Source of the DNA: Phenylobacterium sp.
Lineage (GTDB): Bacteria > Pseudomonadota > Alphaproteobacteria > Caulobacterales > Caulobacteraceae
Assembly: GCF_046590535.1 (NCBI RefSeq)
Contig: NZ_JBKJTG010000251.1
Span: 10,995-74,994, forward strand
Direction of reading: 5' to 3'
Length of the DNA stretch: 64,000 bases
Part shown: positions 5,236 through 49,836 of the stretch, piece by piece
Numbering within the stretch: the stretch's first letter is position 1
Layout: the number at the start of each line of letters is the position of its first letter
Made by a program: the position numbers and the translations under genes
Notes under the pieces: generated by a model
Seen by the model: the letters and a program-made list of their open reading frames with translations, nothing else
Told to the model about the DNA's origin: nothing
Database searches by the model: none

Positions 5236-5558
5236 ATGAGCTCCTCTCTCAAGGGAGCGCTCGATGCAGCTCCGTCGGGGGAGAGGAGAGCCAGCATCGA
5301 GCGCGCCCGATGCGGTCCGACATCGCGATCACCTTGATCGCCAGAGGGGCCCGGTCCGCTCACCCTAGATGTGGGCCGTCTTCGCCCGGGCAAGGTGCGG
5401 CTTCATCAATTCGGCTCATGAGGGCGATGAGGTTCCTCAATGCCGCTCCATATCGGTCGCGTTGGGGCAGATCAGGCCCACTGCGCCAAACCGGAGACGA
5501 GTTGTCGTAGGACTGCCCGCACCAACTGGAACGTTTGGCGCCCCTAGCGAACCTTGGG

Positions 5559-34125: not shown

Positions 34126-34904
34126 ACGGCTTCACCGCCCTGGTGCTGGCCGGGTCACGGGTCGGCGCCGATCCCGTGGCGGCCTATGCGGGCGTCACCC
34201 ACAAGGGGCTCATCGTCCTGGATGGCCAGACCCTGTTGGCCCGCGTGCTCCACGCCCTGGACGCCGCCGGCGCGGCGCGCATCTGCGTGTCCTCCAACGA
34301 CCCCGCCATCGACACCGAACTGGCCGCCATCAGCCTCAACGCCAGTGTCGAGAGGATCGAGGCGGGGGCCAGCCCAAGCCTTAGCGTCGCGCAGGCGCTG
34401 GAACACCTGGGCGCGCCGCTGCTCGTGACCACCTGCGACCACGCGCTCCTGCGCCCGGAGTGGATCCGGCAGTTCCGCAAGGACGCGCCGGCCGAGGCCG
34501 ACATCGCGGTCCTGCTCGCCCCTGAAGACGCCGTGCGCGCCGCCGCGCCGCAGACTGAACGGACCTATCTGGCCTTCCGCGATGGGCGCTATTCGGGGTG
34601 CAACCTCTTCCTGCTGCGGACGTCCCGGGCGCGGGCGGCGGTGGATCTCTGGCGCCGCGTCGAGGCGCACCGCAAGCAGCCTTGGCGGATCGCCCTGATG
34701 CTGGGTCCGGCGATGCTGTTCGGCTTCATCCTGCGGCGGCTGACCCTCGACGGGGCTGTTCGCCGGCTGGGCCGCCGTGCAGGGGTGGCGGCCACGGCCG
34801 TCCTGACGCCCTTCGGCCTGGCGGCGGTGGACGTGGACAAGCCCGCCGATCTCGATCTGGTGCGCGCCCTGGTGGCCGCCGGCGATCCGGCTCAGCGCAC
34901 GTAG
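34122..34904 (+). CDS. MobA-like NTP-transferase domain protein
   Basis: The TTG overlaps the upstream TGA. N-terminal ALVLAGSR...KGLIVLDGQTLL nucleotide-binding pattern. Confidence 0.65.
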   Translation: MNGFTALVLAGSRVGADPVAAYAGVTHKGLIVLDGQTLLARVLHALDAAGAARICVSSNDPAIDTELAAISLNASVERIEAGASPSLSVAQALEHLGAPLLVTTCDHALLRPEWIRQFRKDAPAEADIAVLLAPEDAVRAAAPQTERTYLAFRDGRYSGCNLFLLRTSRARAAVDLWRRVEAHRKQPWRIALMLGPAMLFGFILRRLTLDGAVRRLGRRAGVAATAVLTPFGLAAVDVDKPADLDLVRALVAAGDPAQRT

Positions 34905-35608
34905 CTGGCGCCGTTGATGTCGAGCACCGCGCCGGTCATCGACGCCGGCGCCTCCAGCGCCAGGTAGGCGGCGGCGCTGGCCACCTCCGCCGGGTCCGCC
35001 ACCCGGCCCAGCGGGATGTCCGCCAGGAGCTTGTCGCCGCCGCGGCTGGCCACATAGTCGTCCGCCATGCCGGTCATCACGAAGCCCGGGCAGATGGCGA
35101 AGCACAGGATCCCCTGGCCGGCGTAGCCGCGGGCGATCGACTTGCTCATGCCAATCAGGCCGGCCTTCGACGCTGCATAGTGCCAGTGCTGGGGCGAGTC
35201 GCCGCGATAGGCTGCGCGGCTGGCGATATTGACGATCCGCCCGCCGCCGGTGTCCTGGAAGTGCAGCACCGCGCGCCGGCTAAGGTCGGCGGCGGCCTGG
35301 AGATTGATCTGCAGGGTGTTCGCCCAGCCGGCCCGCCAGGCTTCGGGCTCAGCATCCACCGGCAGGGCCTCGAACACGCCGGCGTTGTTCACCAGCACGT
35401 CGATCCGGCCGCCCAGCCGCGCCAGCGCCCGGTCCCACAGGCGGTCGGCCTCGCCGGGCCGGGAAAGGTCGGCGCCCAGAACGCCCCCCCCGTCCGTGCG
35501 GCCGTGGCCGATCACCCGCGCGCCGCGCTCGGCCAGGGTGGCGACGATGGCGGCGCCGATCCCCCGCGTGGAGCCGGTGACGAGGATGTGTCGCGGATCG
35601 GACGTCAC
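34892..35608 (-). CDS. SDR-family oxidoreductase
   Basis: TGSTRGIGAAI (TGxxxGIG), NNAG and YAASKAG (YxxxK). Confidence 0.9.
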   Translation of the reverse strand: MTSDPRHILVTGSTRGIGAAIVATLAERGARVIGHGRTDGGGVLGADLSRPGEADRLWDRALARLGGRIDVLVNNAGVFEALPVDAEPEAWRAGWANTLQINLQAAADLSRRAVLHFQDTGGGRIVNIASRAAYRGDSPQHWHYAASKAGLIGMSKSIARGYAGQGILCFAICPGFVMTGMADDYVASRGGDKLLADIPLGRVADPAEVASAAAYLALEAPASMTGAVLDINGASYVR

Positions 35609-35620
35609 GGAGTTGAGGCC

Positions 35621-36376
35621 CTAGCCGGCCATCGCCCGGGCCGCCCAGCGCTCGGTGAGCGCCAGGTTGCGCGGCAGGTCGGCGGGGAAGTCCATCTCCG
35701 CCCATCCCAGGCCCTCGATGGAGGCGACGCGCACGCAGCCGCTTTCCCGGGCGATCTGGTCGATGACGCTGAGGTACCAGCGCTTCAGGCCCTCGGGACG
35801 GCGCAGCGCGGCTTCCACGTTCGCCCGGAACCGGTCGGCCCCGGGGGCGGAGAACCTCAGGAAGCCGATCGATTCGCCGTTGAACTCGGCGATGGTCTTG
35901 CCGATCGCCAGCAGCACGTCACCGTCGGTCAGCACCCGCATGTCGTCGTCGTCGTAATTGGCCTTGCGGTCGATGGTGACGGTGATCTCGGCGGCGGGGG
36001 CGGCCAGCAGCCGCTCGGCCACGTCGGGCTCGAACAGGGTGTCGCCGTTGAGCAGCAGCACCTCGCCACGCAGTTCCTCGCGCACCAGCCAGCAGGTCGC
36101 GAGGTTGTCGGTGAGCGCATAGAACGGATTGAACAGGGTCCGCACGGTCAGGCCGGGCAGGTCGAGGCCGGCGACTTCAGCGTCCACCGCGTCGGCGCCG
36201 AAGCCGGTGACCACCACCGCCTCGCGCACCCCCACGGCGTGCAGGTTGGCCAGCTGCCAATGCAAGACGGTGCGACCGGAGAGCCCGATCAGGCACTTGG
36301 GCTTGTCGTCGGTCAGCGGCGACAGCCTGCGCCCCTGGCCGGCGCTCAGGATGACGACCTTGGAAACCTTACTCAC
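35621..36376 (-). CDS. sugar/alcohol-phosphate cytidylyl- or nucleotidyl-transferase (LicC/PntC-like)
   Basis: VILSAGQGRRLSPLTDDKPKCL (GxGxRL...KP). The size and C-terminal region resemble phosphocholine/phosphonate cytidylyltransferases. The start is GTG at 36376 or ATG at 36409. Confidence 0.7.
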   Translation of the reverse strand: MSKVSKVVILSAGQGRRLSPLTDDKPKCLIGLSGRTVLHWQLANLHAVGVREAVVVTGFGADAVDAEVAGLDLPGLTVRTLFNPFYALTDNLATCWLVREELRGEVLLLNGDTLFEPDVAERLLAAPAAEITVTIDRKANYDDDDMRVLTDGDVLLAIGKTIAEFNGESIGFLRFSAPGADRFRANVEAALRRPEGLKRWYLSVIDQIARESGCVRVASIEGLGWAEMDFPADLPRNLALTERWAARAMAG

Positions 36377-36668
36377 GGAAAGACCGCCCCCATCGCGACG
36401 CCGTTGCAACGCGCCATTCTACCAGCCACCAGCCGGTTCCGACAGGCGTGGCGGGCAGCCTTTGCGCTGGTGTTCTCGCCAATCGTCGGCCCGCGGCGCA
36501 ATTCCTCGAGCCGGTGCTTGCCCGAGGCAGCTTGGATGGGCCAGATGCTTCTCGTTCGGGGTCGGGTTCGGGTAGGCGTATGACAGGCATGACGAGATGG
36601 CTGCGGAGGGCGGACGCCCTGGCCGCCGTGCTCATCCGGGCCGCCGCGCCGGGAAGCAGTTTTCGCAG

Positions 36669-39425
36669 ATGATCAGCCACTTGACCCTGAAGCGCCGCGC
36701 CGCCGTCCTGGCCCTGTGCGCGGGCCTCGCCGCGCCGCTGGCAGCGCCCGCCCAGCCCAGGCTGACCACGCCGAAGGAGGCCTTCGGCCACGACATCGGG
36801 GCGGACTACCGGCTGGTGAACTACACCCAGACCGAAGCCTATCTGAAGACCCTGGCCAGCCAGTCCGACCGCATGAAGCTGGTGGACATCGGCCCCACCG
36901 AGGAGGGTCGCCGCGAGTACGTGGCCATCGTCTCCTCGCCGGCCAACCTGGCGAAGCTCGACCGCTACCGCGAGATCGCGCGGCGGATGGCCAAGGCCAA
37001 GGGCGTCGACGAGGCGGCCGCGAAAGCCATGGCCCGGGAAGGCAAGGCGGTGGTCTGGATCGACGGCGGCCTCCACGCCAACGAGACGGTCCCGACACAA
37101 GCGCTGATCGCGGCGCTCTACCAGACGCTGAACGCCCGGGACGCCGAGACCCTGCGCATCCTCGACGACGTGATCATCCTGTTCGCCGAGGTGAACCCGG
37201 ACGGCCAGGAGATGATCTCCAACTGGTACATGCGCAACGAAGATCCGAAGAAGCGAGAATTCCACAGTCTTCCGATGCTATATCACAAGTACATCGGCCA
37301 TGATAACAACCGCGACTACTTTCTATCTGCAATGAAAGAGACTACCAACGTCAACCGGATGTTCTTCCGGGAGTGGTTTCCACAGATCGTCTACAACCAG
37401 CATCAGACGGGGCCCGCCGGGACGGTGGTGTTTGTCCCGCCGTTCCGCGACCCCTTCAACTATCATTACGACCCCCTGGTGATGACCACCTTGAGCGAGA
37501 TCGGCGCGGCCATGCACAGCCGGCTGATCGAGGAGGGCAAGCCCGGCTCCACCATGCGCAGCGGCGCCACCTACTCCACCTGGCACAACGGGATGGAGCG
37601 CTCGGTCATGTACTTCCACAACGCCGTGGGCCTGCTCACCGAGATCATCGGCCACCCCACGCCCATGAGCATCCCCCTGGTGGCCAGGAACCAGATCGCC
37701 CGCAACGACCTGCCCGCGCCCATCGCGCCGCAGGAATGGAAGTTCGCCCAGTCCATCGACTACTCGCTGACCCTGAACCACGCGGTGCTGGACTATGCCT
37801 CGCGCAACCGCGAGCGGCTGTTGATGAACATCTGGCGGATGGGCGCCAACTCCATCAGCCGCGGCCAGAAGGATTCCTGGACGGTCACGCCCAAGCGGAT
37901 CGCCGCCCTCGAGGCCGCCGCCAAGGGCAAGCCCCTGGTGGGGACCGGGCGCAACGCCGGCCTGCAGCCTGACCTCTACGCATCCGTCCTACGCGACCCG
38001 GCGATGCGCGACGCCCGCGGGTACATCCTGCCCGCCGACCAGGCCGACCTGCCCACGGCGGTGAAGTTCCTCAATTCGCTGATCAAGACCGGCGTCGACG
38101 TGGAGCGCGCCACCCGGGACTTCACGGTGGCCGGCAAGACCTATCCCGCCGGCTCCTATGTGGTGAAGGCCGACCAGGCCTACCGCCCGCACCTGCTGGA
38201 CATGTTCGAGCCGCAGGACCATCCGCACGACGTGGAGTATCCCGGCGGCCCGCCGGTCGCCCCCTACGACGTCGCCGGCTACACGCTGGCCCTGCAGATG
38301 GGCGTGAAGTTCGACCGCGTGCTGGAGGGGTTCGACGGGCCGTTCGAGCCGGTGGCCGACGTCATGGCGCCACCGCCGGGCCGGATGGTCGGGTCCGGCC
38401 GCGCCGGCTGGCTGGTCAGCCACGCGCAGAACGACAGCTTCATCCTTTCCAACCGCCTCCTGAAGGCGGGCCAGCCGGTCTATTGGGTCAAGGCCGCCAC
38501 GCGGGCCGGGCGGCAGGCCTTTGCGCCCGGCGCCCTGTGGATCCCCGCCAGCCCCGCCAGCCGCGCCGCGGTCGAGGCGGCGGTCACGGGCCTGGGCCTT
38601 GACGCCCACGCGGTGGGCCGCGCGCAGGCTGGCGAAACGCTGAAGCTGAAGCCCGTCCGGGTGGGGCTGGTGGACAAGTACGGGGGCGTGATGACCGCCG
38701 GTTGGACCCGCTGGCTGCTGGAGCAGTTCGAGTTCGACTACGCAGATGTCTATCCGCAGCGCCTGGACGCCGGCGACCTGAACCGCGACTTCGACGTCCT
38801 GGTGTTCACCAACGGCGTGCTGGCCGCGGGCGAGGGTGAGGGCTTCACCTCGCGTCAGCCGAAGCCCGAGGATATCCCAGCAGAATTCCACCCCTGGTTG
38901 GGCGAGATCACCCCGCAGAAGACCTGGCCGCAGGTGGCCGCCTTCCTGCGCGCCGGCGGTACGGTGGCGGCCATCGGGCCCTCGACCCGCCTGGCGGCGG
39001 CGGTGAGCGCGCCGGTGACCGACGTCCTGGCCACCACCGCGGGCCTGCCCCTGCCGCGCACGCAGTTCTATATCCCGGGCTCGCTGCTGGAGGTGGCGGT
39101 GGACAACAGCCAGCCGCTGGCGTTCGGCGCGCCGGCGACCATGAACGTGTTCTTCGACCGCAGCCCGGCGTTCCGGGTGGCGCCCGGCTCGGCCGCCGCG
39201 CGGGCGGCCTGGTATCCGCAGGGCGACGTGCTGCGCAGCGGCTGGGCGGTGGGCCAGGACAGGCTCAATGGCGCGGCCGCCGTGGTCGACCTGGACGTGG
39301 GCCGGGGCAAGCTCTTCCTGCTGGGCCCGGAGGTGGCGCAACGGGCGCAACCGCACGCGTCCTTCCGGTTCCTGTTCAACGGCCTGCAGTACGGGCCGGC
39401 CGTTTCAAGGGCAGCGGTCAACTAG
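36669..39425 (+). CDS. secreted M14-family zinc carboxypeptidase-like protein with a large C-terminal extension
   Basis: Signal peptide (MISHLTLKRRAAVLALCAGLAAPLAAPAQP). Zn-binding GGLHANE (HxxE). Confidence 0.8.
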   Translation: MISHLTLKRRAAVLALCAGLAAPLAAPAQPRLTTPKEAFGHDIGADYRLVNYTQTEAYLKTLASQSDRMKLVDIGPTEEGRREYVAIVSSPANLAKLDRYREIARRMAKAKGVDEAAAKAMAREGKAVVWIDGGLHANETVPTQALIAALYQTLNARDAETLRILDDVIILFAEVNPDGQEMISNWYMRNEDPKKREFHSLPMLYHKYIGHDNNRDYFLSAMKETTNVNRMFFREWFPQIVYNQHQTGPAGTVVFVPPFRDPFNYHYDPLVMTTLSEIGAAMHSRLIEEGKPGSTMRSGATYSTWHNGMERSVMYFHNAVGLLTEIIGHPTPMSIPLVARNQIARNDLPAPIAPQEWKFAQSIDYSLTLNHAVLDYASRNRERLLMNIWRMGANSISRGQKDSWTVTPKRIAALEAAAKGKPLVGTGRNAGLQPDLYASVLRDPAMRDARGYILPADQADLPTAVKFLNSLIKTGVDVERATRDFTVAGKTYPAGSYVVKADQAYRPHLLDMFEPQDHPHDVEYPGGPPVAPYDVAGYTLALQMGVKFDRVLEGFDGPFEPVADVMAPPPGRMVGSGRAGWLVSHAQNDSFILSNRLLKAGQPVYWVKAATRAGRQAFAPGALWIPASPASRAAVEAAVTGLGLDAHAVGRAQAGETLKLKPVRVGLVDKYGGVMTAGWTRWLLEQFEFDYADVYPQRLDAGDLNRDFDVLVFTNGVLAAGEGEGFTSRQPKPEDIPAEFHPWLGEITPQKTWPQVAAFLRAGGTVAAIGPSTRLAAAVSAPVTDVLATTAGLPLPRTQFYIPGSLLEVAVDNSQPLAFGAPATMNVFFDRSPAFRVAPGSAAARAAWYPQGDVLRSGWAVGQDRLNGAAAVVDLDVGRGKLFLLGPEVAQRAQPHASFRFLFNGLQYGPAVSRAAVN

Positions 39426-39657: not shown

Positions 39658-40056
39658 ATGCCTATGAGCACGCGCCAACTTACCGTCCTCGTCGCCGACG
39701 ACGATCCCCTTCTGCGAGCCATCCTGGAGCACAAGCTGAGCGCGGCCGGCTACGCCGTGCACAGCGTCGAGGACGGGCAGGCGGCGCTGGACGCCGCGGC
39801 GCGGCTGCGGCCGGACCTCCTCGTACTCGATGGCATGATGCCGATCATGGACGGCTTCGAGGTCCTGCGGCGGCTGAAGGCCGACGGTGACCTGTGCAAG
39901 ATCATCGTGGTGATGCTGACGGCCCTCAAACGTCAGGAAGACGTCCTGGGGGCGCTCAAGCTGGGGGCGGATGACTACCTCGCCAAGCCGTTCAACCCCG
40001 ATGAACTCGTCGCGCGGCTCGACCGACTCTCAGCGCCGTTGCGGATGGGCCCGTGA
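39658..40056 (+). CDS. single-domain response regulator (REC only)
   Basis: VLVADDD...LLVLDGMMPIMDG...T...AKPF. The stop overlaps the next start (GTGA). Confidence 0.9.
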   Translation: MPMSTRQLTVLVADDDPLLRAILEHKLSAAGYAVHSVEDGQAALDAAARLRPDLLVLDGMMPIMDGFEVLRRLKADGDLCKIIVVMLTALKRQEDVLGALKLGADDYLAKPFNPDELVARLDRLSAPLRMGP

Positions 40057-41168
40057 GAACGTTCCTGCTCGGGGTCGTGCTCGTGCTGGCGGCGAGCGCC
40101 GCGCACGCCCAGGCGCCCGAATCCGCCCCGACCACCGGCGATAGCCTGGCCAGGGGCTCGGCCCTGCGCGCCAGCGGCCGTGCGGCGGAGGCCGTTCCCC
40201 TCCTGGAGGCGGCCATCCGCGAGAGCCCCGCCGACGCCGACGCCTGGCTGAACCTGGGCCTCGCCTACACCGCCACCGGCCGCTACGACGACGCCGAGCG
40301 GGTGCTGGACTACGCCCTGCGCCTGTCCCCCGACTATGCCGACGCGCATGTCGCCCGCGCGAGACTGGCCTTTTTCCGGGAGGATCTCCGGGAGGCGCGC
40401 CGCCGGCTGGCGCCTGCGCTCGCCGCCCGGCCGCAGAACCCCGACGCCCTGGCGCTGCAGGCGCAGCTCCTGCAGGCGCTGGCGGCAGCGTCCGCCCGGT
40501 GGCGGCTTGACGCCAACGTCAACACCGCGCGGCTCAGCGACGGACTCCCCGCCGCGCGCGGTGTGGCCGTCTTCCTGGGCCGCACCTTCGAGGGCGGCCT
40601 GACCCTTTCGGGCGGGATCGAGCGCCAGCGTCAGTTCGGCGCCACCGACACCTATCTGGAGGGCCAGTTCGGCCATCGCTTGGGCTATCTGGCGCTTGGC
40701 GGGACGGCCCATGCCGACTTCCGCCCGGAGGCGAGCGTGCGCGGCGGCCTCTATGCCCGGCCCAGGTCTCTGGGGGCGGGGTGGACCGCCCAGGCGGGCG
40801 CGGACGCGGGATGGTCGCGCTATGCGGCCGGCGACGTGCGGACCCTTACGCCGCTGATCACCCTGGCCCGCGGCGAGGCCCTGACGCTCACGGCGCGATG
40901 GATAAATGTGCTGGACGAGACCGACACGCGCAGGTCCGGCTACGGTCTGGCCGCCGCCTTTCGACCCCGCCCGCGTCTGCAACTCCTGGCCGGCTGGACC
41001 GACGCACCGGAGTCCAGCGACGGCGTGACCGTCGATGTGCAGGCCGTCAGCCTGGGCGTGGCCGTGGATGTGGCCGAGGACTTCACCCTGCGGCTGGGCG
41101 GGACCCGGGAGATACGCCGGGCCTATGACCGCGAAGATGTCTCCGCCGGCCTGACCCGCCGTTTCTGA
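40053..41168 (+). CDS. outer-membrane protein: N-terminal TPR repeats plus a YaiO-like beta-barrel
   Basis: Signal peptide ...AAHAQA. TPR segment (ADAWLNLGLAYTATGRYDDAERVLDYALRLSPDYADAH). The C-terminal half has alternating beta-strand character and ends in ...GLTRRF. Confidence 0.65.
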   Translation: MRTFLLGVVLVLAASAAHAQAPESAPTTGDSLARGSALRASGRAAEAVPLLEAAIRESPADADAWLNLGLAYTATGRYDDAERVLDYALRLSPDYADAHVARARLAFFREDLREARRRLAPALAARPQNPDALALQAQLLQALAAASARWRLDANVNTARLSDGLPAARGVAVFLGRTFEGGLTLSGGIERQRQFGATDTYLEGQFGHRLGYLALGGTAHADFRPEASVRGGLYARPRSLGAGWTAQAGADAGWSRYAAGDVRTLTPLITLARGEALTLTARWINVLDETDTRRSGYGLAAAFRPRPRLQLLAGWTDAPESSDGVTVDVQAVSLGVAVDVAEDFTLRLGGTREIRRAYDREDVSAGLTRRF

Positions 41169-41170
41169 CG

Positions 41171-42217
41171 GTGAGCCTGCTCAGCCTCATCTGGTCGGTC
41201 GCCCTGGCGCTATGCGCCGCGGCGGTCCTGTGGATGTCGGCGCTGATCGTCCTGCGGGTCTTCTCGGATCGTGCAGCGCGCCGCCGGGCGGAGGATCGCC
41301 GGGCGGTGGAGCGGTGCTTCGTGGGCATTCTGCAAGGCCGCTCCGACGTGGTGCGGGACCTGGCGCCCTACCGCGGCCGGGCGCGCCTGATGGCCGAGTC
41401 CCTGCTGGACTTCCTGACCCTGGTGCGCGGGGTGGATCTGGAGATCGTGCTGGGCGCCCTGGAGAGCGTCGGGGTCGACAAGGTCCTGGCGGCGCGCCTG
41501 AACCGCGGTTCCCTGGCCGGGCGCCTGGCGAGCGTCGAGGCCCTGGGCGCCTTTGCCGGCGAAGCGACCCGCGCCGCCCTGGTGCAGGCGGCCGCCCGCG
41601 GTCCGGCCACCGTGCGGCTGGCCGCCCTGCGCTCGCTGCTTCAGGCCGGCGGCGAGGTCGATATCGCGCGCCTGCTGCAGCACCTCGCCCGCGGCGAACT
41701 GCGGCACAGCGGTCCGCTGACGGATCTGGCGCACCTGGTCATCGCGGCCGACCCGACGGCCGCCATGGGCGTGCTGGCGCAGCCTGACCTCGCCCCCGCG
41801 ACCCGCATCCTGATCGTCGAGGGCCTGGGCGCGGCCGGGGCCTACGCCGCCCTGCCGATCATCAACGCTCACGCGGAGGCCGGACGCGCGGATGTCCGGG
41901 CAGCGGCGATCTCCACCCTAGGGCGGATGATGCACCCCGCGGCTGAACCCGCGCTTGAGCGGGCGTTGACGGACCCGGCCTGGGAAGTTCGGTCGGCGGC
42001 GGCCGCGGCGATCGGCGAGGCGCGCCTGGCGTCGCTTGTCGGACCCCTCGCGGCGCAGCTATCCGACAGCGTGTGGATCGTGCGGTTTCAAAGTGCTGGC
42101 GCCTTGCTGAAGCTGGGTGAATCCGGCCTCGAGCGGCTCCGGGCGGCCGCCTTGGGCGCTGACGCCAGGGCCGAGCAGACGGCGTCCCTGATGCTGGCCG
42201 AACGCGGGCTGGCGTGA
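41171..42217 (+). CDS. membrane-anchored HEAT/armadillo-repeat protein
   Basis: One N-terminal TM helix, then repeated ...VR.AA..ALG..G... units (for example DPAWEVRSAAAAAIGEA and DSVWIVRFQSAGALLKLG). Confidence 0.65.
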   Translation: MSLLSLIWSVALALCAAAVLWMSALIVLRVFSDRAARRRAEDRRAVERCFVGILQGRSDVVRDLAPYRGRARLMAESLLDFLTLVRGVDLEIVLGALESVGVDKVLAARLNRGSLAGRLASVEALGAFAGEATRAALVQAAARGPATVRLAALRSLLQAGGEVDIARLLQHLARGELRHSGPLTDLAHLVIAADPTAAMGVLAQPDLAPATRILIVEGLGAAGAYAALPIINAHAEAGRADVRAAAISTLGRMMHPAAEPALERALTDPAWEVRSAAAAAIGEARLASLVGPLAAQLSDSVWIVRFQSAGALLKLGESGLERLRAAALGADARAEQTASLMLAERGLA

Positions 42218-43641
42218 TGGACCTCATGTCCGCCGCCCTCGTGCTGACCCGGTCCGCGGAGTCCGTCGCCGGGTTCGTCATCGCCGCAGGCGTTGCCCAG
42301 AACGCCTTCCACCTTCTGCAGTTGGTAGTGGCCGGCGTGGCGCTTCGGCGGACCCGCGGCGCGGTCGAGCCGGCGCAGCTGTGGCGCCGCTATGCGGAGA
42401 ACGCGCCGCCCATCAGTCTTCTGGTGCCCGCCTACAACGAGGAAATGTCGATCGTTGAAAGCCTGCGCTCCCTGCTGGCTCTGCAGTATCCGACCTTCGA
42501 GGTCGTGGTCGTCAATGACGGGTCGAAGGACGGAACCCTGGCGGCGCTGATCGCCGCGTTCGACCTGGCGCCGGTGGAGCGCAGCTACGACACCGTCGCG
42601 CCCCATGCCCGCATTCGTAGACTTTATGGCTCGCCGCACCAACCCAGACTGCTCGTGGCGGACAAGGAGAACGGTGGCAAGGCGGACGCGCTCAACGCCG
42701 CCATCAACCTCTCCCGGGCCCCCATCGTCTGCTCGATGGACGCGGACTCCCTGCTGGAGCCGGACGCGCTGCTGCGCGGGGTGCGGCCGTTCGTCGAGGA
42801 TCCACAGCGGGTGGTGGCGGCCGGCGGGACGGTGCGCGTGGTCAACGGCTGCAAAATCCAGCACGGCCGGGTCACGCGGGTGGGCACCCCCCGCAACCTG
42901 CTAGCTCTCTTGCAGACCATCGAGTATCTGCGCGCCTTCCTGATGGCGCGCCTGGCCTGGAGCGAGATGGGGTCGCTGCTGATCATCTCCGGCGCCTTCG
43001 GGCTGTTCCGCCGCGACGCGGTCCTCGAGGTGGGCGGCTACAGCCTGGGGACGGTGGGCGAAGACATGGAGTTGGTGGTCAAGCTGCACCGCCACTTCCG
43101 GCGCGCGAAACGCCCCTATCGCATCGCCTTCGTCCCCGAACCCGTCTGCTGGACAGAGGCCCCCGAGACCCTCTCCGTGCTGGGGCGCCAACGGGCCCGC
43201 TGGCACCGCGGGGCGCTGGAGACCTTCGTGCGCCACAGGGCGATGGTCCTGAATCCGCGCTATGGCCGGGTCGGTCTCTTGGGTTTCGGCTATATCCTTC
43301 TGGTCGATGTTCTGGGGCCCTTCGTCGAGTTGGCGGGCTACATGTTGGTCCCCGCCCTTTGGCTGCTGGGCGTCCTTCACGTGGACTATCTGTACGCCTT
43401 CCTGGCGATCAGCTTCGGCTTCGGGGTCATGCTCAGTATCGGCGCCCTGGCGCTGGAGGAAACCGAGCTGCGTCGCTTCCCGCTGGTCCGCAACCTCGTG
43501 CTTCTGATGTTCGCCGCCATCATTGAGAACTTCGGCTACCGGCAGCTCAACAACCTTTGGCGACTTCACGGAACCTGGCAGTTCATCACCCGGCAGCACG
43601 GCTGGGGGACCATGACCCGGCGAGGATTCACCCGTGCTTGA
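42214..43641 (+). CDS. processive family-2 glycosyltransferase (PgaC/IcaA/YaiP-like polysaccharide synthase)
   Basis: TM helices flank a GT-A domain. Motifs are VPAYNEE, NDGS.D, DAD, GED and QRARWHRG (QxxRW). The start overlaps the HEAT protein stop. Confidence 0.9.
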   Translation: MMDLMSAALVLTRSAESVAGFVIAAGVAQNAFHLLQLVVAGVALRRTRGAVEPAQLWRRYAENAPPISLLVPAYNEEMSIVESLRSLLALQYPTFEVVVVNDGSKDGTLAALIAAFDLAPVERSYDTVAPHARIRRLYGSPHQPRLLVADKENGGKADALNAAINLSRAPIVCSMDADSLLEPDALLRGVRPFVEDPQRVVAAGGTVRVVNGCKIQHGRVTRVGTPRNLLALLQTIEYLRAFLMARLAWSEMGSLLIISGAFGLFRRDAVLEVGGYSLGTVGEDMELVVKLHRHFRRAKRPYRIAFVPEPVCWTEAPETLSVLGRQRARWHRGALETFVRHRAMVLNPRYGRVGLLGFGYILLVDVLGPFVELAGYMLVPALWLLGVLHVDYLYAFLAISFGFGVMLSIGALALEETELRRFPLVRNLVLLMFAAIIENFGYRQLNNLWRLHGTWQFITRQHGWGTMTRRGFTRA

Positions 43642-43891
43642 GGCAAACGGACTCCAGCTCGCGCAGCAGGGCCGCCATCTCGGCCGCGTCCGGTTGACCG
43701 GCGTGCCGGCGGTCGTCGACGGCGCCGGCCAAGCGGCTCAACTCATCGAAGCCGAACACGCCCGCCGTGCCGGAGAGCCGGTGGATGAGCACCCCCGCCG
43801 CCTCGGGCTCAAGCCCGCCCCGCAGCTTCGCCAGATCGTCCGCGGCCCTGGCCAGGAAGCGGGCCCTGAGCGGAGCCATCGGATCGCTCAC
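43628..43891 (-). CDS. Hpt (histidine phosphotransfer) domain protein
   Basis: 87 aa with IHRLSGTAGVFGF (HxLxGxAG). ATGA overlap with the upstream REC gene. Confidence 0.7.
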   Translation of the reverse strand: MSDPMAPLRARFLARAADDLAKLRGGLEPEAAGVLIHRLSGTAGVFGFDELSRLAGAVDDRRHAGQPDAAEMAALLRELESVCLKHG

Positions 43892-44259
43892 AGGCCAGCC
43901 AGGCGCCGGACCTCGGCCGCCAGCCCAATCGGGTCGAAGGGCTTGGTGATCACCCCGGCCACGCCCAGGGCCATCAGCTGCGCCAGTTCATCGGGCAGCA
44001 CGCGCGCGGTGATGAACAGCGCCGCGGGCTGGACGCCGGCGCGCGCACGGATCTCGGCCAGCAGCATCGGCCCATCCATCTGTGGCATCATCACATCCAG
44101 CATGACGATGTCGGCTTTCCAACTTTCGAGCAGGGTGAGCGCCTCGGGACCGGAAGCGGCGATCCGGACCTCGAGGTCCTCGTCCATCTGCAGGCACAGC
44201 TCCGCCACTTCCCGGATGTCCGCATCGTCGTCGACGTACAGCACCTTCAACGGCGACAT
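43888..44259 (-). CDS. single-domain response regulator
   Basis: VLYVDDD...IVMLDVMMPQMDG...T...TKPF. Confidence 0.9.
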   Translation of the reverse strand: MSPLKVLYVDDDADIREVAELCLQMDEDLEVRIAASGPEALTLLESWKADIVMLDVMMPQMDGPMLLAEIRARAGVQPAALFITARVLPDELAQLMALGVAGVITKPFDPIGLAAEVRRLAGL

Positions 44260-44349
44260 GACGGCTCCCAGCTACCCAGACCTACCGATAGCACCCCCGC
44301 ACGAAAGCCGTCACGGACCCCGGTCCGAACGGCTGCAACAGGCGCACCC

Positions 44350-46389
44350 ATGACCGACGCAGAAGCCGCCCGCCTCGCCACCTTGCGGGAATACCAGATC
44401 CTGGACACCGGCCCGGAGGCCGTGTTCGACCGCATCACCGAACTGGCGGCCGACCTGTTCGACGCCCCCATCGCCCTGGTGTCGCTGGTGGACAAGGACC
44501 GTCAGTGGTTCAAGTCGATGGTGGGGCTGGACGTCCACGAAACGCCGCGAGAGCAGGCCTTCTGCGCCCACACCATCCTCACCGACGAGGTGATGGTGGT
44601 GCCTGACGCGGAGCTGGACGAGCGATTCCGCGACAACCCCCTGGTCCTGGACGATCCTCTGATCCGCTTCTATGCCGGCGCGCCCCTGACCATGCCCAAC
44701 GGTCAGCGGCTGGGGTCGCTGTGCATCATCGATCGCAACCCGCGGCCGCCGCTCACCCCGACCGAGCGCCGGCGCCTCCAGATTCTGGCGGAGATCGTGG
44801 TCAGCGAGATGAACCTGCGCCTGACACGCGAGCGGCTGGAACTGGCCAACAAGGAGGCCGAGACCGCCCGCGCCGCTATCGCCGAGCGGGAGAAGATGTT
44901 CCACGAACTGGCGGACTCCGCGCCGGACATGGTGCTGAAAGTCGATCAGACCTACACCATCGTCTACGCCTCTCCGTCGGTCAGCCAACTCGGCTATGTT
45001 CCTGAGGACCTGGTCGGGCAGCCCGGGCTCAGCCTGGTCCACCCTGACGACCTGTCCAGGATCACCACCCAGCTCGCCGGGCTGATGCAGGGCGGCGAAG
45101 CGGGGGCGGCGAAGGAACGCAGCTATCGCGTGCGCACCCGCCAGGGCGACTATGCGTGGGTGGAGGGCAACCCGAGCATGTTGCGCGAGGCCGATGGCTC
45201 CATCAGCGGCCTGGTCACCCAGTTGCGCGACATCACCCTGCGACGGGCGGCCGAGGAGGCCCTTGAGGCCAGCGAGGCGCGCTACCGCCTGCTGGCCGCG
45301 AACTCGAGCGACGTGATCGGCTGCTACGGCAAGAACGCCATCTTCACGTTCATCTCACCGGCGATCTACCGCGTGCTGGGCTACCGGCCCGAGGAGCTGG
45401 TCGGGCGCCATACCAGCGAGTTCATGCACAAGGACGACGTGCCCCACATCATGCGCATGTTCCGGGACTACATGGCGGCGGGGGAAGGCGCGGAGCCGAT
45501 CCGCTTCGAGTACCGGGCCTTCCGCAAGACCGGGGAACCGATCTGGCTGGAGGGGCATCCGCGGGCGATCTATGAGAACGGGACGTTCGTCGAGTTCCAG
45601 GACGTGGTGCGCGACATCTCCCTGCGTAAGGCGAACGAACGCGCGCTCGCCGAGGCGCGCGACGCCGCCGAGGCCGGGGCCGCGGCGAAGACCGAGTTCC
45701 TGGCCAACATGAGCCATGAGCTGCGCTCGCCGCTCACCAGCATCATCGGGTTCGCGGGCATCCTGGGCGCCTCCCCCACCCTGGGTGAGAGGGAGCGGCG
45801 CTTCACTGAGCGGATCGGCGCGGCGTCGAACAACCTCCTGACCATCGTCAACGACGTCCTCGACCTCGCCCGCCTGGACTCCGGCGAACTGTCGATCAAG
45901 CCGGAGGCGACGGACCCGCGGGAGGTGGTGGCCGGTGTCCTTGAGATGCTGGCCGAACAGGCTGCCGCCAAGGGTCTCGTGCTGACCATGGAATCGAAGG
46001 CTGACCTGCCGAAGGTGCTGGCGGATCCGGCGAGGCTGCGGCAGGTGGTCCTGAACCTGGTCAGCAACGCCGTGAAGTTCACCGAGAAGGGCTCCATCAC
46101 AGTTTGCCTGCGCCGGCAGGCCGAGACCCTGACCATCGCGGTGGTGGACACCGGCATCGGCATAGCGCCCGACCGCGTCGACCAGGTCTTTGAGCGGTTC
46201 GTCCAGGCGGACGCGTCGATCACCCGGAAGTTTGGCGGAACGGGACTGGGCCTCGCCATCTCACGGCGTCTCGTCGACCGCATGGGCGGTGATATTGAAG
46301 TGGCCAGCAAGATCGGCGAAGGCGCCACGTTCACGGTGCGCCTGCCGTTGTCGCTGCAGCCGGCCGCCCTCGCAGCGGAGGCCCATTGA
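44350..46389 (+). CDS. cytoplasmic GAF-PAS-PAS histidine kinase (no receiver domain)
   Basis: N-terminal GAF (ALVSLVDKDRQWFKS...FCAH), two PAS modules, H-box SHELRSPLTSI, and NLVSNAVKFT, DTGIGI, GTGLGLAIS boxes. Confidence 0.9.
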   Translation: MTDAEAARLATLREYQILDTGPEAVFDRITELAADLFDAPIALVSLVDKDRQWFKSMVGLDVHETPREQAFCAHTILTDEVMVVPDAELDERFRDNPLVLDDPLIRFYAGAPLTMPNGQRLGSLCIIDRNPRPPLTPTERRRLQILAEIVVSEMNLRLTRERLELANKEAETARAAIAEREKMFHELADSAPDMVLKVDQTYTIVYASPSVSQLGYVPEDLVGQPGLSLVHPDDLSRITTQLAGLMQGGEAGAAKERSYRVRTRQGDYAWVEGNPSMLREADGSISGLVTQLRDITLRRAAEEALEASEARYRLLAANSSDVIGCYGKNAIFTFISPAIYRVLGYRPEELVGRHTSEFMHKDDVPHIMRMFRDYMAAGEGAEPIRFEYRAFRKTGEPIWLEGHPRAIYENGTFVEFQDVVRDISLRKANERALAEARDAAEAGAAAKTEFLANMSHELRSPLTSIIGFAGILGASPTLGERERRFTERIGAASNNLLTIVNDVLDLARLDSGELSIKPEATDPREVVAGVLEMLAEQAAAKGLVLTMESKADLPKVLADPARLRQVVLNLVSNAVKFTEKGSITVCLRRQAETLTIAVVDTGIGIAPDRVDQVFERFVQADASITRKFGGTGLGLAISRRLVDRMGGDIEVASKIGEGATFTVRLPLSLQPAALAAEAH

Positions 46390-46393
46390 CAAC

Positions 46394-47425
46394 ATGCCCA
46401 CGATGACCCGCGCCGAGTTCATCGCCGGCCTGCCGAAGGCCGAGCTGCACCTGCATATCGAGGGCAGCCTCGAGCCTGAGCAGATGTTCGAATTCGCCCG
46501 GCGCAACCGCATCGACCTGCCGTTCAAGTCGGTGGAAGAGGTCCGCGCGGCCTACGCCTTTTCCAACCTGCAGGACTTCCTGGACATCTACTACCAGGGC
46601 GCCGACGTGCTGCGGACCGAGGCGGACTTCCGCGACCTGGCGCTGGCCTACTTCCGGCGCGCGGCGGACGATGGGGCGCGCCACGTGGAGCTGTTCTTCG
46701 ACCCGCAGACCCACACGGCCAGGGGCATCCCCTTCGCCGTGGCCGCCGACGGCCTGCTGGCCGGGATGGCGGAGGCCGGGACCAGCCTGGGCGTCTCCTC
46801 CAAGTTGATCCTCTGCTACCTGCGCCATCTTTCCGAGGACGAGGCTTTCACCACCCTGCGCCAGGCTGAGCCTTACCTCGACCGGATCGCCGGCGTCGGC
46901 CTGGATTCGTCGGAGGTCGGCCACCCGCCCACGAAGTTCGCCAAGGTCTATGCGGCGTCGCGTGAGCGCGGGCTGAAGCTGGTCGCCCACGCCGGCGAGG
47001 AAGGCCCGCCGGCCTATGTCTGGGAGGCGCTGGACGAGCTGCGGGTGGACCGCATCGACCACGGCAACCGCTCGCTTGAGGACGACCGGCTGGTGGCCCG
47101 GCTGGTGGCCGACGGCATGACCCTGACGGTCTGCCCGCTCTCCAACCTCAAGCTATGCGTGGTCGACGACCTGGCGACGCACCCCTTGAAGCGGATGCTG
47201 GACCTGGGGCTGAAGGCGACCATCAATTCCGACGACCCGGCCTATTTCGGCGGCTATCTTGGCGAGAACTGGACCGCCACGGCGGGCGCCCTGGACCTGA
47301 CCCGCGAGGCGCTGATCACCCTGGCCCGGAACAGCTTCACCGGCTCGTTCCTGGCGCCGCCGGAGATCGCGGCGCACCTGGCGGCCATTGACGCCTATGC
47401 GCTGGCCAACCCGGCGGTTGCGTGA
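46394..47425 (+). CDS. adenosine/adenine deaminase family protein
   Basis: LPKAELHLHIEGSL, HAGE and NSDDPAYF metal and catalytic motifs. Confidence 0.9.
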   Translation: MPTMTRAEFIAGLPKAELHLHIEGSLEPEQMFEFARRNRIDLPFKSVEEVRAAYAFSNLQDFLDIYYQGADVLRTEADFRDLALAYFRRAADDGARHVELFFDPQTHTARGIPFAVAADGLLAGMAEAGTSLGVSSKLILCYLRHLSEDEAFTTLRQAEPYLDRIAGVGLDSSEVGHPPTKFAKVYAASRERGLKLVAHAGEEGPPAYVWEALDELRVDRIDHGNRSLEDDRLVARLVADGMTLTVCPLSNLKLCVVDDLATHPLKRMLDLGLKATINSDDPAYFGGYLGENWTATAGALDLTREALITLARNSFTGSFLAPPEIAAHLAAIDAYALANPAVA

Positions 47426-47495
47426 GCCGCGGGAATGGCGCCACCCTTGCGGTGAGCGGCGCGAGACGACGCCGGCCAATCCGGGAAGAACCACC

Positions 47496-48716
47496 ATGCT
47501 GAAGCTACGCGCCGCGCTGATGGGCGCCACGGCCGCCACCCTGATCGCCGGCGCCGCCCAGGCCGCGACCCTGGCGGTGGGCCCCGGCCCCAACGCCCAG
47601 GAGCGGCTGCAGACCGCGCTGCTGGACGCCAAGGCCGGGGACGTGGTGCGCCTGGCGGCCGGCCGCTACGAACTCACCGACGGCCTCTCCCTCGACATCG
47701 ACGGGGTCACCGTCCAGGGCGCGGGGCCGGGCGCCACCATCCTGTCGTTCAAGGGCCAGAAGGGCGCCGGCGAGGGCCTGCTGATCACCTCGGACCGGGT
47801 CACGGTGCGCGACTTCGCCATCGAGGACAGCCGCGGCGATGGGATCAAGTCCAAGGGCGCCGACCAGATCAGCTTCGTGAACCTGCGGGTGGAATGGACC
47901 GGGGGGCCGAAGGAAACCAACGGCGCCTATGGCGTCTATCCGGTGACCTCAACCAATGTGCTGATCGACAAGGTGGTGGTAAAGGGCGCGTCGGACGCCG
48001 GCATCTATGTGGGACAGTCGAAGAACATCATCGTCAAGCGCAGCCGCGCCGAGTTCAACGTGGCCGGCATCGAGATCGAGAACTCGATGAACGCCGACGT
48101 GTTCGACAACGTCGCCACCCACAACACCGGCGGCATCCTGATCTTCGACCTGCCCGGCCTGCCGCAGATGGGCGGTCACTCCACCCGGGTGTTCCGCAAC
48201 AAGGTGGTCGACAACGACACGCCAAACTTCGCGCCCAAGGGCAATATCGTCGCCGGCGTGCCGATGGGCACCGGCATCATGGTGATGGCCAACCGCAACG
48301 TGCACCTGTTCGACAACGAGATCAGCGGCAACCAGTCCACCGCGGTGACCCTGGTCGCCTATCGCTTCAAGTTCGACGACAAGACCTATAACCCCCTGCC
48401 GCGCGACATCGTGGTGCGCGATAACAAGATCGGCCGCAACGGCTGGGACCCCAAGTTCGATGGCGGCGCCATGCTGGCCAAGGCCATGGGCGGAAGCGTG
48501 CCACCGGTGATGTGGGACGGGGTCACAACCTTCCCCGGCACGACGGAGCCGGTCCGCCTGCGGCTCTCCGACGGTCCCGTCGCCAACCTTCGGCTGCCGG
48601 CGCCCGGCGCCATGGACAAGGCCAATCCGGAGGTGACGGCCACCTACGGCGACGCCGTCCTGCCGGAGCCCAAGGCCGTCGTGCTGCCCGCCGCGCAGGC
48701 CGCGCTGGGCGCATGA
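47496..48716 (+). CDS. secreted parallel beta-helix repeat protein (partner of the SO_2930-type cytochrome)
   Basis: Signal peptide. Repeated beta-helix rungs (IDGVTVQG, VTVRDFAIEDS, NVLIDKVVVKG, NIIVKRSRAEFN, ADVFDNVATHN...). Confidence 0.8.
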   Translation: MLKLRAALMGATAATLIAGAAQAATLAVGPGPNAQERLQTALLDAKAGDVVRLAAGRYELTDGLSLDIDGVTVQGAGPGATILSFKGQKGAGEGLLITSDRVTVRDFAIEDSRGDGIKSKGADQISFVNLRVEWTGGPKETNGAYGVYPVTSTNVLIDKVVVKGASDAGIYVGQSKNIIVKRSRAEFNVAGIEIENSMNADVFDNVATHNTGGILIFDLPGLPQMGGHSTRVFRNKVVDNDTPNFAPKGNIVAGVPMGTGIMVMANRNVHLFDNEISGNQSTAVTLVAYRFKFDDKTYNPLPRDIVVRDNKIGRNGWDPKFDGGAMLAKAMGGSVPPVMWDGVTTFPGTTEPVRLRLSDGPVANLRLPAPGAMDKANPEVTATYGDAVLPEPKAVVLPAAQAALGA

Positions 48717-49768
48717 GGCTGGGCCTGGCGGCCCTGGCGGCTGCGGCTCTGCTGACCGGCGCGGCGCCCCAGACCCCGCCGGTGGCCCTCGACCGGCTCC
48801 TGGCCCCCACGCCTGAGCCAACCCTGGACGCCTACCGCCTGTTCACCGACCAGGCCGGGGCGCGGCCGAACGCCGGGCTGACGCCCTATGGCCTGAACAC
48901 GCCGCTGTTCAGCGATTACGCCGAGAAGGAACGCTTCCTCTACCTGCCGCCGGGAACCCGGGCGCAGTACCGGGCCGATGCGGCGTTCGAGTTCCCGGTG
49001 GGCGCGACCCTGGTCAAGACCTTCGCCTATCCCGCCGACCTGCGCCGCCCGGCCGAGAAAATCCGCCGGCTGGAAACCCGCCTGCTGATCCGCCGGCGCG
49101 AGGGCTGGACGGCGCTCACCTATGTCTGGAACGTCCAGCAGACTGAGGCGGTCCTGAAGCGCGCCGGCGCGCGGCTGGACGTCAGCTTCATCGACCTGGC
49201 CGGGGCCACCCGCCAGGTGGACTATGCCGTGCCCAACACCAACCAGTGCAAGGAGTGCCATCAGGTCTTAGGCGTGCTGACGCCCATCGGGCCCAAGGGC
49301 CGCAACCTCAACGGCGACTTCGCCTATGCCGACGGGCGGGAGAACCAGCTGGTCCGCTGGCGGCGGGCGGGCCTCCTGGCGGGCGCGCCGGACCCGGGCA
49401 AGGCGCCGCGCACCGCCGTCTGGGACGCCCCCGCCGAGCCCCTGGCGGCGCGGGCCCGGGCCTACCTCGACAGCAACTGCGCCCACTGCCACAGCCCCAC
49501 GGGCATCGCCTCCAACAGCGGCCTCTTCCTGCAGCTGGAGGAGACCCGTCCCGGCGCGCTGGGGGTCGACAAGCGCCCGGTGGCGGCCGGCCGCGGGTCC
49601 GGCGGCCTGGAGGTGTCCATCGCGCCGGGACGCCCGCAGGACTCGATCCTGCTGCACCGCATGGTCTCCACCGAGCCCGGCGTGATGATGCCCGAGCTCA
49701 GCCGGTCCCTGCGGCACGACGAGGGCGTGGCGCTGATCTCCGCCTGGATCGCGGGCACGAAGCCCTGA
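48713..49768 (+). CDS. dihaem c-type cytochrome (SO_2930-like family)
   Basis: ATGA overlap with the beta-helix gene. Two CxxCH sites, CKECH and CAHCH. Confidence 0.8.
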   Translation: MRLGLAALAAAALLTGAAPQTPPVALDRLLAPTPEPTLDAYRLFTDQAGARPNAGLTPYGLNTPLFSDYAEKERFLYLPPGTRAQYRADAAFEFPVGATLVKTFAYPADLRRPAEKIRRLETRLLIRRREGWTALTYVWNVQQTEAVLKRAGARLDVSFIDLAGATRQVDYAVPNTNQCKECHQVLGVLTPIGPKGRNLNGDFAYADGRENQLVRWRRAGLLAGAPDPGKAPRTAVWDAPAEPLAARARAYLDSNCAHCHSPTGIASNSGLFLQLEETRPGALGVDKRPVAAGRGSGGLEVSIAPGRPQDSILLHRMVSTEPGVMMPELSRSLRHDEGVALISAWIAGTKP

Positions 49769-49836
49769 GTTCGACGCCGCTGGACCTGCCCACTTTGCCG
49801 GCGCAGGCTGGCCGGCAGGCAGGTGGGAGGCGCGCG

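Follow-up and report, generated by a model that had tools for sequence, protein, structure and literature searches.

Synthase-dependent exopolysaccharide systems are central to biofilm biology. Membrane family 2 glycosyltransferases (GT2) of the QxxRW type, such as BcsA and PgaCD, polymerize a nucleotide sugar and translocate the chain through their own channel. To our knowledge, every characterized synthase-dependent system (cellulose, poly-N-acetylglucosamine or PNAG, alginate, Pel, and Nfr) is switched by cyclic di-GMP (c-di-GMP). The 64-kb stretch of DNA analyzed here (the window; G+C content ~70%) encodes proteins whose closest relatives come from Phenylobacterium, and it carries at 39658-46389 a cluster of seven genes built around a membrane GT2. 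On balance, and with moderate confidence, we consider this cluster a module for a synthase-dependent extracellular polysaccharide with a HEAT-repeat co-subunit and a phosphorelay as its input, with product, export, and regulation read from sequence. Synthase-dependent secretion is a known kind of system; what we rate as new would be the partner proteins and the type of input. The seven genes are as follows.

39658-40056, + strand: REC1, stand-alone receiver, 132 aa (PF00072, E 4e-29)
40053-41168, + strand: predicted outer-membrane TPR and YaiO-family barrel protein, 371 aa (TIGR04390 and TPR families)
41171-42217, + strand: predicted single-pass inner-membrane HEAT-repeat protein, 348 aa (HEAT_2, E 5e-17)
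42214-43641, + strand: membrane GT2 synthase, 475 aa (Pfam GT2 families; PgaC_IcaA the best NCBIfam match)
43628-43891, - strand: Hpt phosphotransfer protein, 87 aa, His37 (PF01627, E 1.4e-9)
43888-44259, - strand: REC2, stand-alone receiver, 123 aa, Asp55 (PF00072, E 7e-23)
44350-46389, + strand: cytoplasmic histidine kinase, GAF-PAS-PAS-HisKA-HATPase_c (Pfam domains)

A first-pass annotation of this DNA had described four tightly packed genes at 39658-43641. All four open reading frames (ORFs) exist as placed, and their junctions are those claimed. The REC1 stop overlaps the start of the barrel gene in a GTGA at 40053-40056, the barrel and HEAT genes are 2 nt apart (41169-41170, within TGA-CG-GTG at 41166-41173), and the stop of the HEAT gene overlaps the GT2 start in a GTGATG at 42214-42219. 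The REC1, barrel, HEAT, and GT2 genes are translationally coupled. Public gene calls begin the GT2 at the ATG at 42217 (P0023, 474 aa), and this is likely its start rather than 42214. The extent itself has to be widened, as it left out the Hpt, REC2, and histidine kinase genes, which belong to the same conserved module as the four-gene operon. The GT2 and Hpt genes converge with their 3' ends overlapping by 14 nt, the REC2 gene overlaps the start of the Hpt gene, and the kinase gene is divergent from REC2-Hpt across a 90-bp spacer. A promoter and terminator scan gave nothing above shuffled controls.

Comparison with characterized synthase-dependent systems

Judged by its predicted parts, this is a secretion locus of the synthase-dependent kind, yet it is none of Pga, Bcs, Nfr, Pel, or Alg. 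The GT2 matches Glyco_tranf_2_3 (E 6e-28), and its best NCBIfam model is PgaC_IcaA, at 152.1 bits versus an equivalog cut-off of 422.3. The closest characterized enzyme is E. coli PgaC (29% identity over 317 aa, E 1e-35). Models for NodC and chitin synthase match as well, and in a search of solved structures residues 61-340 matched BcsA chains. As the first-pass annotation had claimed, the hallmarks of a processive inner-membrane GT2 are in place, namely the D, DxD, (T/G)ED, and QxxRW motifs and flanking transmembrane helices, with hydrophobic segments at aa 7-44 and aa 353-437. The motifs lie at the following positions.

42514-42525: NDGS101
42739-42747: DAD176
43057-43065: GED282
43189-43203: QRARW326

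The subfamily is marked by two insertions, an EYLRA motif, and a C-terminal ENFGYRQ...WGxMxRxGF tail, which is conserved and reads WGTMTRRGF at its end in the window. These marks are common to the aligned members from archaea to Bacteroidota, with the Legionella GT2 alone lacking the last residues of the tail, and they are absent from PgaC and YaiP.

The predicted exporter has a cleavable signal peptide (aa 1-19, 40053-40109), a TPR part of seven helices (aa 30-147, 40140-40493), and a YaiO-family beta-barrel of ~14 strands ending in Phe (aa 150-371, 40500-41165). The earlier identification of a TPR protein with a YaiO-like outer-membrane barrel is thus sound: TPR families match the N-terminal part, and TIGR04390, the YaiO domain, scores 72.9 bits versus a cut-off of 32, with model positions 1-230 on residues 150-371. 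An AlphaFold2 model (pLDDT 92.8) places the 7 TPR helices at 30-147 and ~14 strands at 150-370. With the whole chain, Foldseek found E. coli BcsC best (9b8h/9b8a, E 4e-10), while the 14-stranded OmpG fits the barrel best (TMt 0.57-0.66). The protein therefore has the architecture of an outer-membrane barrel exporter with a periplasmic TPR domain, but with a barrel smaller than those of known exporters. BLASTP and pairwise hhalign gave no similarity between this barrel and E. coli YaiO, so the assignment to the YaiO family comes from the curated hidden Markov model; against E. coli PgaA and NfrA the same methods gave TPR similarity only. The TPR part lengthens to ~400-700 residues in homologs from Microvirga, Methylobacterium, Mesorhizobium, and Bacteroides, as expected of a periplasmic scaffold with variable reach. 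We propose from the predicted fold that this protein may be a periplasmic receptor and outer-membrane conduit. Sequence and profile searches of solved structures found no close relative of any component, only BcsA and generic GT2 N-terminal regions, designed alphaRep proteins, and TPR proteins.

Of the named systems, PgaABCD/IcaADBC, which makes poly-beta-1,6-GlcNAc, shares the most with the locus in the family of its synthase. It also has a small obligate inner-membrane synthase partner, a role we propose here for the HEAT protein, and its exporter joins an N-terminal periplasmic TPR region to a C-terminal barrel. However, PgaC falls outside the subfamily, lacking the two insertions and the WGxMxRxGF tail, and the window protein does not reach the equivalog score. 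The partner here is a transmembrane helix with a HEAT solenoid, whereas PgaD has two transmembrane helices. No PgaB is encoded in the window, and the accompanying PgaB/PgaD/PgaA (IcaB/IcaD) set was not found. The PgaA model reaches 27.7 bits versus 366.65 on the barrel protein, and does so through the TPR only; PgaA has 16 strands and a long TPR region, in contrast to the YaiO-family barrel of ~14 strands with ~3.5 TPR repeats. A phosphorelay would also stand here in place of the c-di-GMP link.

The Bcs system has a QxxRW GT2 with a membrane channel, as is predicted here, and the exporter, compared as a whole chain, is closest in fold to BcsC. The CelA model, however, scores 63 bits versus 699 on our synthase, and the locus has neither BcsB nor PilZ. 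In E. coli the single-pass protein BcsF tethers BcsE, which has a degenerate receiver domain, to the synthase, an arrangement formally like that of the membrane-anchored HEAT protein and REC1. Neither BcsF nor BcsE is related to the HEAT protein, and the phospho-acceptor site of REC1 is intact whereas the REC* domain of BcsE is degenerate.

NfrB-NfrA-YbcH, which E. coli annotation calls an exopolysaccharide secretion system, is a recently recognized, minimal combination of a membrane GT2 and an outer-membrane TPR-barrel protein. Similarity between the window GT2 and NfrB is negligible (best BLASTP E 0.009 over 42 aa), there is no MshEN and no YbcH here, and NfrA shares TPR similarity only, its barrel not being of the YaiO family. 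These comparisons with Pga, Bcs, and Nfr agree with the first-pass annotation, which had seen no match to the known sets.

That annotation had also pointed to E. coli yaiO as lying beside the GT2 gene yaiP. The two do share a cluster, yet they are not adjacent, since the order is yaiS-yaiP-yaiX-yaiO and the yaiX pseudogene lies between them. TIGR04390 matches both barrels (182.5 bits for YaiO, 72.9 for the window protein), and YaiP, a membrane GT2, likewise has PgaC_IcaA as its best family and is 28% identical to the window GT2 over 259 aa. In contrast to our locus, the E. coli cluster has no HEAT protein, no receiver, and no TPR on YaiO, and it adds an acyltransferase pseudogene and a putative deacetylase; YaiP has ExxRW rather than QxxRW and lacks the subfamily insertions and tail. 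By these comparisons, the link to YaiP and YaiO is at the family level only.

Conservation of the operon in Alphaproteobacteria

A GT2-alignment scan of one genome per species gave at least 564 relatives, of which the 80 best (GT2 identity at least 61%) are the loci studied here. Their ORFs were labeled by phmmer, and gene order was counted in the 72 loci with at least 2.7 kb of upstream sequence. The 80 loci come from Caulobacterales, Sphingomonadales, Methylobacterium, Microvirga, Hyphomonadaceae, and Maricaulales. The REC1-barrel-HEAT-GT2 order is found in 66 of the 72, so the arrangement is conserved across several alphaproteobacterial orders, which the first-pass annotation had left as a point to check. 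REC1 is the first gene of the operon in 67/72 and HEAT is upstream of GT2 in 70/72. The exceptions to the order are two frameshifted or fused assemblies (L025 and L050), two Methylobacterium loci with a 760-aa barrel protein and no REC1 upstream, and two Ponticaulis loci in which the receiver lies just downstream of GT2. Every other neighboring gene family occurs in at most 8 of the 80 loci, and no Wzx, Wzy, phosphoglycosyl transferase, or ABC-transporter genes are conserved beside the module. Because the order is kept while the flanking genes are not conserved, we conclude that the REC1-barrel-HEAT-GT2 cluster is under selection as a unit.

The cluster is also retained in three more divergent metagenomic loci. 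L084 has a histidine kinase gene followed by REC-YaiO-HEAT-GT2, with a convergent Hpt-REC-hybrid kinase, and L086 has REC-TPR/YaiO-HEAT-GT2-CE4. In L087 the GT2 is 53% identical and the HEAT protein is barely alignable, and a YaiO barrel and receivers still flank them.

The polymer sugar is probably an N-acetylhexosamine, although this is weakly hinted. The best characterized relatives of the GT2 (PgaC/IcaA, NodC, and the chitin synthase models) use UDP-GlcNAc, and a membrane-anchored periplasmic CE4 deacetylase adjoins the operon in 7/80 loci and in L086; such a neighbor hints at an N-acetylated polymer. The earlier statement that the four genes show no deacetylase or c-di-GMP receptor domain is correct (we found no PilZ, GGDEF, or MshEN domain in them), but it did not extend to these neighbors. 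The CE4 protein (~600 aa, N-terminal transmembrane helix, PF01522 at E 1.7e-10) was seen in L008, L016, L023, L025, L039, L049, and L055 and at 10495-12306 of L086; none is encoded in the 64-kb window.

A few loci deserve separate mention. At 4163-5851 of L051 is a gene for a secreted ~560-aa protein with no Pfam, NCBIfam, or PDB match. Homologs occur in L025, L047, L049, L062, L068, L069, and L077, making 8 loci, mainly Microvirga and Methylobacterium, and the protein is a candidate accessory factor. The L023 contig is labeled as an uncultured Treponema sp. metagenome-assembled genome (MAG) and carries a Caulobacterales-type operon (GT2 70% identical); for this contig the Treponema label is probably wrong. 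In another MAG, the barrel and HEAT genes form one 722-aa ORF (L050, 6706-8874) with TPR and HEAT matches in Pfam. We rejected this as a real fusion of outer- and inner-membrane proteins, an assembly indel or frameshift being most likely.

The HEAT-repeat protein as a predicted synthase partner

The HEAT protein has one transmembrane helix (aa 10-28, 41198-41254), with no K or R in residues 1-7 and eight in residues 29-55; the basic stretch from R29 to R44 is conserved. Basic residues following the helix place the solenoid in the cytoplasm by the positive-inside rule, and we predict a cytoplasmic HEAT domain. The first-pass annotation had recognized a single-pass HEAT-repeat membrane protein but missed this orientation. 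An AlphaFold2 model (pLDDT 94.3) shows a long helix at 3-54, made up of the transmembrane segment and its basic extension, followed by ~9 helical hairpins. Foldseek with this model returned scaffold proteins only (alphaRep, PP2A-A, importin, and Integrator), which argues for a role in protein binding rather than catalysis. We propose that the protein is an obligate co-subunit or adaptor of the synthase. Bilin lyase or NblB-type activity was rejected, as those models reach 17-26 bits versus cut-offs of at least 300 and match the repeat motif only. A search of species-representative genomes with the HEAT profile was swamped by giant HEAT-repeat proteins, and its counts are no measure of family size.

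The receiver REC1 and a putative phosphorelay

REC1 matches PF00072 and has no output domain, and is thus the stand-alone receiver described previously. Its phospho-acceptor is Asp58 (39829-39831), and at least 95% of 69 orthologs retain D14, D15, D58, T88, and K110. REC2, which is 30% identical to REC1, likewise conserves its acidic pocket, D55, and KPF (D55 in at least 95% of 46 orthologs), and Hpt conserves His37 in at least 95% of 51 orthologs. The kinase has no transmembrane segment and no receiver domain. All parts of a His-Asp-His-Asp phosphorelay are therefore encoded side by side (kinase, receiver Asp, Hpt His, and terminal receiver), and with their catalytic residues conserved they look functional. 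We propose that the kinase, REC2, Hpt, and REC1 may form such a relay ending at REC1.

Synteny is consistent with this proposal. Orthologs of the window kinase (phmmer E <1e-100) adjoin the operon in three layouts, either upstream of it, or downstream and on the same strand, or divergent, for example in L002, L003, L015, L020, and L041. Some other loci have a different kinase in an Hpt-REC2-kinase operon (e.g., L084). Hpt lies within 9 kb of GT2 in 36/58 loci, and in 31 of these it is beside a receiver. REC2-type receivers adjoin the kinase in L084 and in Mesorhizobium, and both also have an Hpt. The earlier suggestion that phosphorylation is the input thus gains indirect support, with phospho-acceptors conserved in at least 95% of orthologs and a histidine kinase, REC2, and Hpt next door in most relatives. 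Pfam and NCBIfam searches of the seven proteins found no PilZ, GGDEF (I-site), MshEN, EAL, or GIL domain, that is, no recognizable c-di-GMP receptor, and none of the genes conserved beside the module encodes a diguanylate cyclase or phosphodiesterase.

With no output domain, and with its gene translationally coupled to structural genes, REC1 most likely works through contact with other proteins. A direct precedent is known from Myxococcus xanthus, in which the phosphorylated single-domain regulator EpsW activates the exopolysaccharide enzyme EpsZ post-translationally (PMC12802240), binding a key membrane enzyme as we propose for REC1. The target there, however, is a phosphoglycosyl transferase of a Wzx/Wzy pathway rather than a synthase, no HEAT partner is involved, and the input is chemosensory instead of a kinase-receiver-Hpt relay; no homology is implied beyond the receiver fold.

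HEAT-GT2 pairs beyond Alphaproteobacteria

A tblastn search of plasmid records with the GT2 found relatives 33-58% identical, in the following gene contexts.

Mesorhizobium ciceri pMESCI01: kinase-REC-REC-YaiO-HEAT-GT2 with a convergent Hpt
Legionella adelaidensis: YaiO-HEAT-GT2 between nucleotide-sugar dehydrogenase and epimerase genes
Bacteroides finegoldii: HEAT-GT2-(TPR and YaiO, 988 aa)
Emticicia oligotrophica: REC-(weak HEAT)-GT2-(small TPR protein)-YaiO
Deinococcus radiophilus: TPR protein-HEAT-GT2
Planococcus maritimus: unknown protein-HEAT-GT2
Salinirubellus (haloarchaeon): REC-HEAT-GT2
Haloarcula halophila (haloarchaeon): REC-HEAT-GT2-kinase

As in the alphaproteobacterial loci, the HEAT gene lies upstream of GT2 in six other lineages. 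Every annotated HEAT partner examined has an N-terminal transmembrane helix, and the residues after it are basic in all four that were checked (the window, Salinirubellus, Planococcus, and Bacteroides). The archaeal HEAT protein aligns over nearly its full length to the alphaproteobacterial HEAT profile, and the receivers directly upstream of the haloarchaeal HEAT-GT2 genes are 43-45% identical to REC1. In Alphaproteobacteria, Legionella, and Bacteroidota, HEAT-GT2 is accompanied by a YaiO barrel; the monoderm and archaeal contexts all lack one. We propose that the membrane-anchored HEAT protein and the GT2 are the ancient core of the module, the barrel being a diderm add-on and the REC1 relay a regulatory add-on in Alphaproteobacteria and haloarchaea. 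We conclude from these sequences that, in Alphaproteobacteria and haloarchaea at least, a REC1-type receiver has been inherited together with the core. The first-pass guess that the system is widespread fits both the 564 or more relatives among species-representative genomes and the HEAT-GT2 pairs in five further phyla, Archaea included.

Two of these loci have additional genes. On plasmid 9 of Legionella adelaidensis (L094, 748-9010) there is no receiver, and the order is nucleotide-sugar dehydrogenase, epimerase, TPR-less YaiO barrel, HEAT, GT2, epimerase/dehydratase, and a PhaC-like alpha/beta hydrolase. This operon suggests a uronic-acid-type sugar in the Legionella lineage. On pEMTOL05 of Emticicia oligotrophica (L089, 7271-10496), the TPR part (126 aa) and the YaiO barrel (253 aa) are separate genes. 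After them comes a gene for a protein of the LTA-synthase/sulfatase family, and this protein may attach a phospho-substituent to the polymer.

Proposed mechanism and alternatives

In the mechanism that we propose, based on domain content and synteny, the GAF-PAS-PAS kinase would be a cytoplasmic sensor of an intracellular cue, and phosphate would pass from the kinase to REC2 (Asp55), Hpt (His37), and REC1 (Asp58). Phosphorylated REC1 would then act post-translationally on a synthase complex made up of the GT2 and its membrane-anchored HEAT partner, with the HEAT solenoid as the likely docking surface and either HEAT or the GT2 tail as the target. In their own systems PgaD and the BcsB anchor pack against the synthase, and the transmembrane helix of the HEAT protein probably does likewise. 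By analogy with BcsA and PgaCD, and given its motifs and transmembrane segments, the GT2 would polymerize a nucleotide sugar and thread the chain through its own membrane channel. From their fold and family, the short periplasmic TPR domain would take up the chain and the ~14-strand YaiO barrel would pass it across the outer membrane. A broader proposal, which we put forward tentatively and with less than even confidence, is that phosphorylated REC1, the anchored HEAT protein, and the GT2 are an ancient phospho-switched synthase of Bacteria and Archaea. HEAT would then be a new class of co-subunit, phosphorylation would take the allosteric role of c-di-GMP, and the versions with diderm YaiO barrels would be a further secretion family beside Bcs, Pga, Alg, Pel, and Nfr.

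Several points weigh against this mechanism. The GT2 channel is predicted from motifs and transmembrane segments only, and the GT2 is so far under the PgaC equivalog score (152 vs. 422) that this match would not fix the donor sugar and linkage. There is no periplasmic modifying enzyme in the window. A TPR domain of ~3.5 repeats is too short to span the periplasm, and ~14 strands are fewer than the 16-18 of the exporters PgaA, BcsC, PelB, and AlgE. The relay is not universal, with no Hpt within 9 kb in 22/58 loci, and its order from kinase through REC2 and Hpt to REC1 is deduced from gene content. In Legionella, Bacteroides, Deinococcus, and Planococcus no receiver lies near HEAT-GT2, so that the HEAT protein must be a core co-subunit and cannot serve only as an adaptor for REC. 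In the literature we found neither the module nor any HEAT-partnered GT2 synthase described, and no experimental study of any member, in keeping with the earlier view of the system as undescribed; a paper on stress responses in Sphingomonas proved to be unrelated; most subscription journals lay outside the full-text search, and this absence is not proof.

The receiver-free pairs, along with the Methylobacterium loci lacking REC1 upstream of the barrel gene, would also be expected if the same polysaccharide machine ran without gating by its receiver. The HEAT protein would then be a constitutive structural co-subunit like PgaD or BcsB, and REC1 would take up phosphate as a sink, connect to another pathway, or regulate transcription or localization indirectly. 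Single-domain receivers are often sinks or connectors. We consider this unlikely, though worth keeping in view. REC1 is translationally coupled to structural genes, it leads the operon in nearly all loci (67/72), and haloarchaea have REC1-type receivers at the same operon position; such a pattern would be difficult to account for if the receiver did not act on HEAT-GT2 itself. A greater departure would be a GT2 that makes a short oligosaccharide in the manner of NodC, a glycolipid, or a periplasmic or envelope glycan, with the YaiO barrel as a porin or anchor. Matches to NodC and chitin-synthase models, the small barrel and short TPR, the lack of a processing enzyme in the window, and an E. 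coli YaiO whose function is not known are all in line with this. Nevertheless, QRARW with a C-terminal membrane bundle is typical of chain-translocating synthases, a TPR-barrel fusion is a hallmark of synthase-dependent exporters with BcsC as the top fold match, and TPR parts of 400-700 residues in homologs would suit a secreted polymer better. The barrel is also distributed as an export part should be, accompanying HEAT-GT2 in Alphaproteobacteria, Legionella, and Bacteroidota and absent in the Firmicute and archaeal contexts. We therefore regard a product other than a secreted high-molecular-weight polymer as improbable.

It is also conceivable that c-di-GMP is the direct allosteric input, at an unrecognized site in the Arg-rich juxtamembrane HEAT helix or the GT2 C-terminal tail, and that the relay only modulates. 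This has precedent, as all well-characterized Gram-negative synthase-dependent systems use c-di-GMP and PgaCD binds it without a recognizable domain, and the HEAT protein has its conserved basic stretch from R29 to R44. We find it very improbable given the lack of any known c-di-GMP-binding domain in the seven proteins and of turnover enzymes conserved beside the module, and given that the REC-HEAT-GT2 triad also occurs in haloarchaea, for which we know of no c-di-GMP signaling.

If the phosphorelay-gated mechanism is correct, it would describe another synthase-dependent family, with a cytoplasmic HEAT partner, a small YaiO-type exporter, and a phosphorelay replacing c-di-GMP, and it would offer a tractable system for how a receiver domain gates a processive glycosyltransferase. 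It would also give the orphan E. coli YaiO family its first functional context; the YaiO papers that we found use the gene as a PCR marker only. The module is common in environmental and plant-associated Alphaproteobacteria (Caulobacterales, Sphingomonadales, Methylobacterium, Microvirga, and Mesorhizobium plasmids), and its HEAT-GT2 core extends further, to Legionella, Bacteroides, Deinococcus, Firmicutes, and haloarchaea. A single characterized example would therefore provide annotation for hundreds of genomes.

Neighboring genes and other features of the window

Several neighbors were considered as parts of the module and rejected by synteny. Directly upstream of REC1 is an M14 zinc-carboxypeptidase-like peptidase (36597-39425, + strand) with no counterpart beside the operon in the 80 loci. 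It is a secreted protein of 942 aa; Pfam accounts for residues 80-332, and the long C-terminal remainder matches no family. Also without a homolog beside the operon in these loci are the nucleotidyltransferase and SDR genes (34892-36409) and an adenosine deaminase gene. The same is true near the operon for a right-handed beta-helix (NosD-like) protein (47388-48716, + strand) and a Sulfotransfer_4-domain protein (49246-50457, + strand). The genes for these last two lie 1-3 kb past the kinase, and the beta-helix protein has a hydrophobic, signal-peptide-like N-terminus; both proteins could act on glycans. An LptF/LptG lipopolysaccharide export permease pair (30696-32992, + strand) lies a few kb upstream and is by synteny unrelated to the module. 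The window has no tRNA genes, and its sole Rfam match is a terC RNA motif (RF03067) at 5308-5362 on the - strand, with 59.8 bits versus a gathering cut-off of 39.9.

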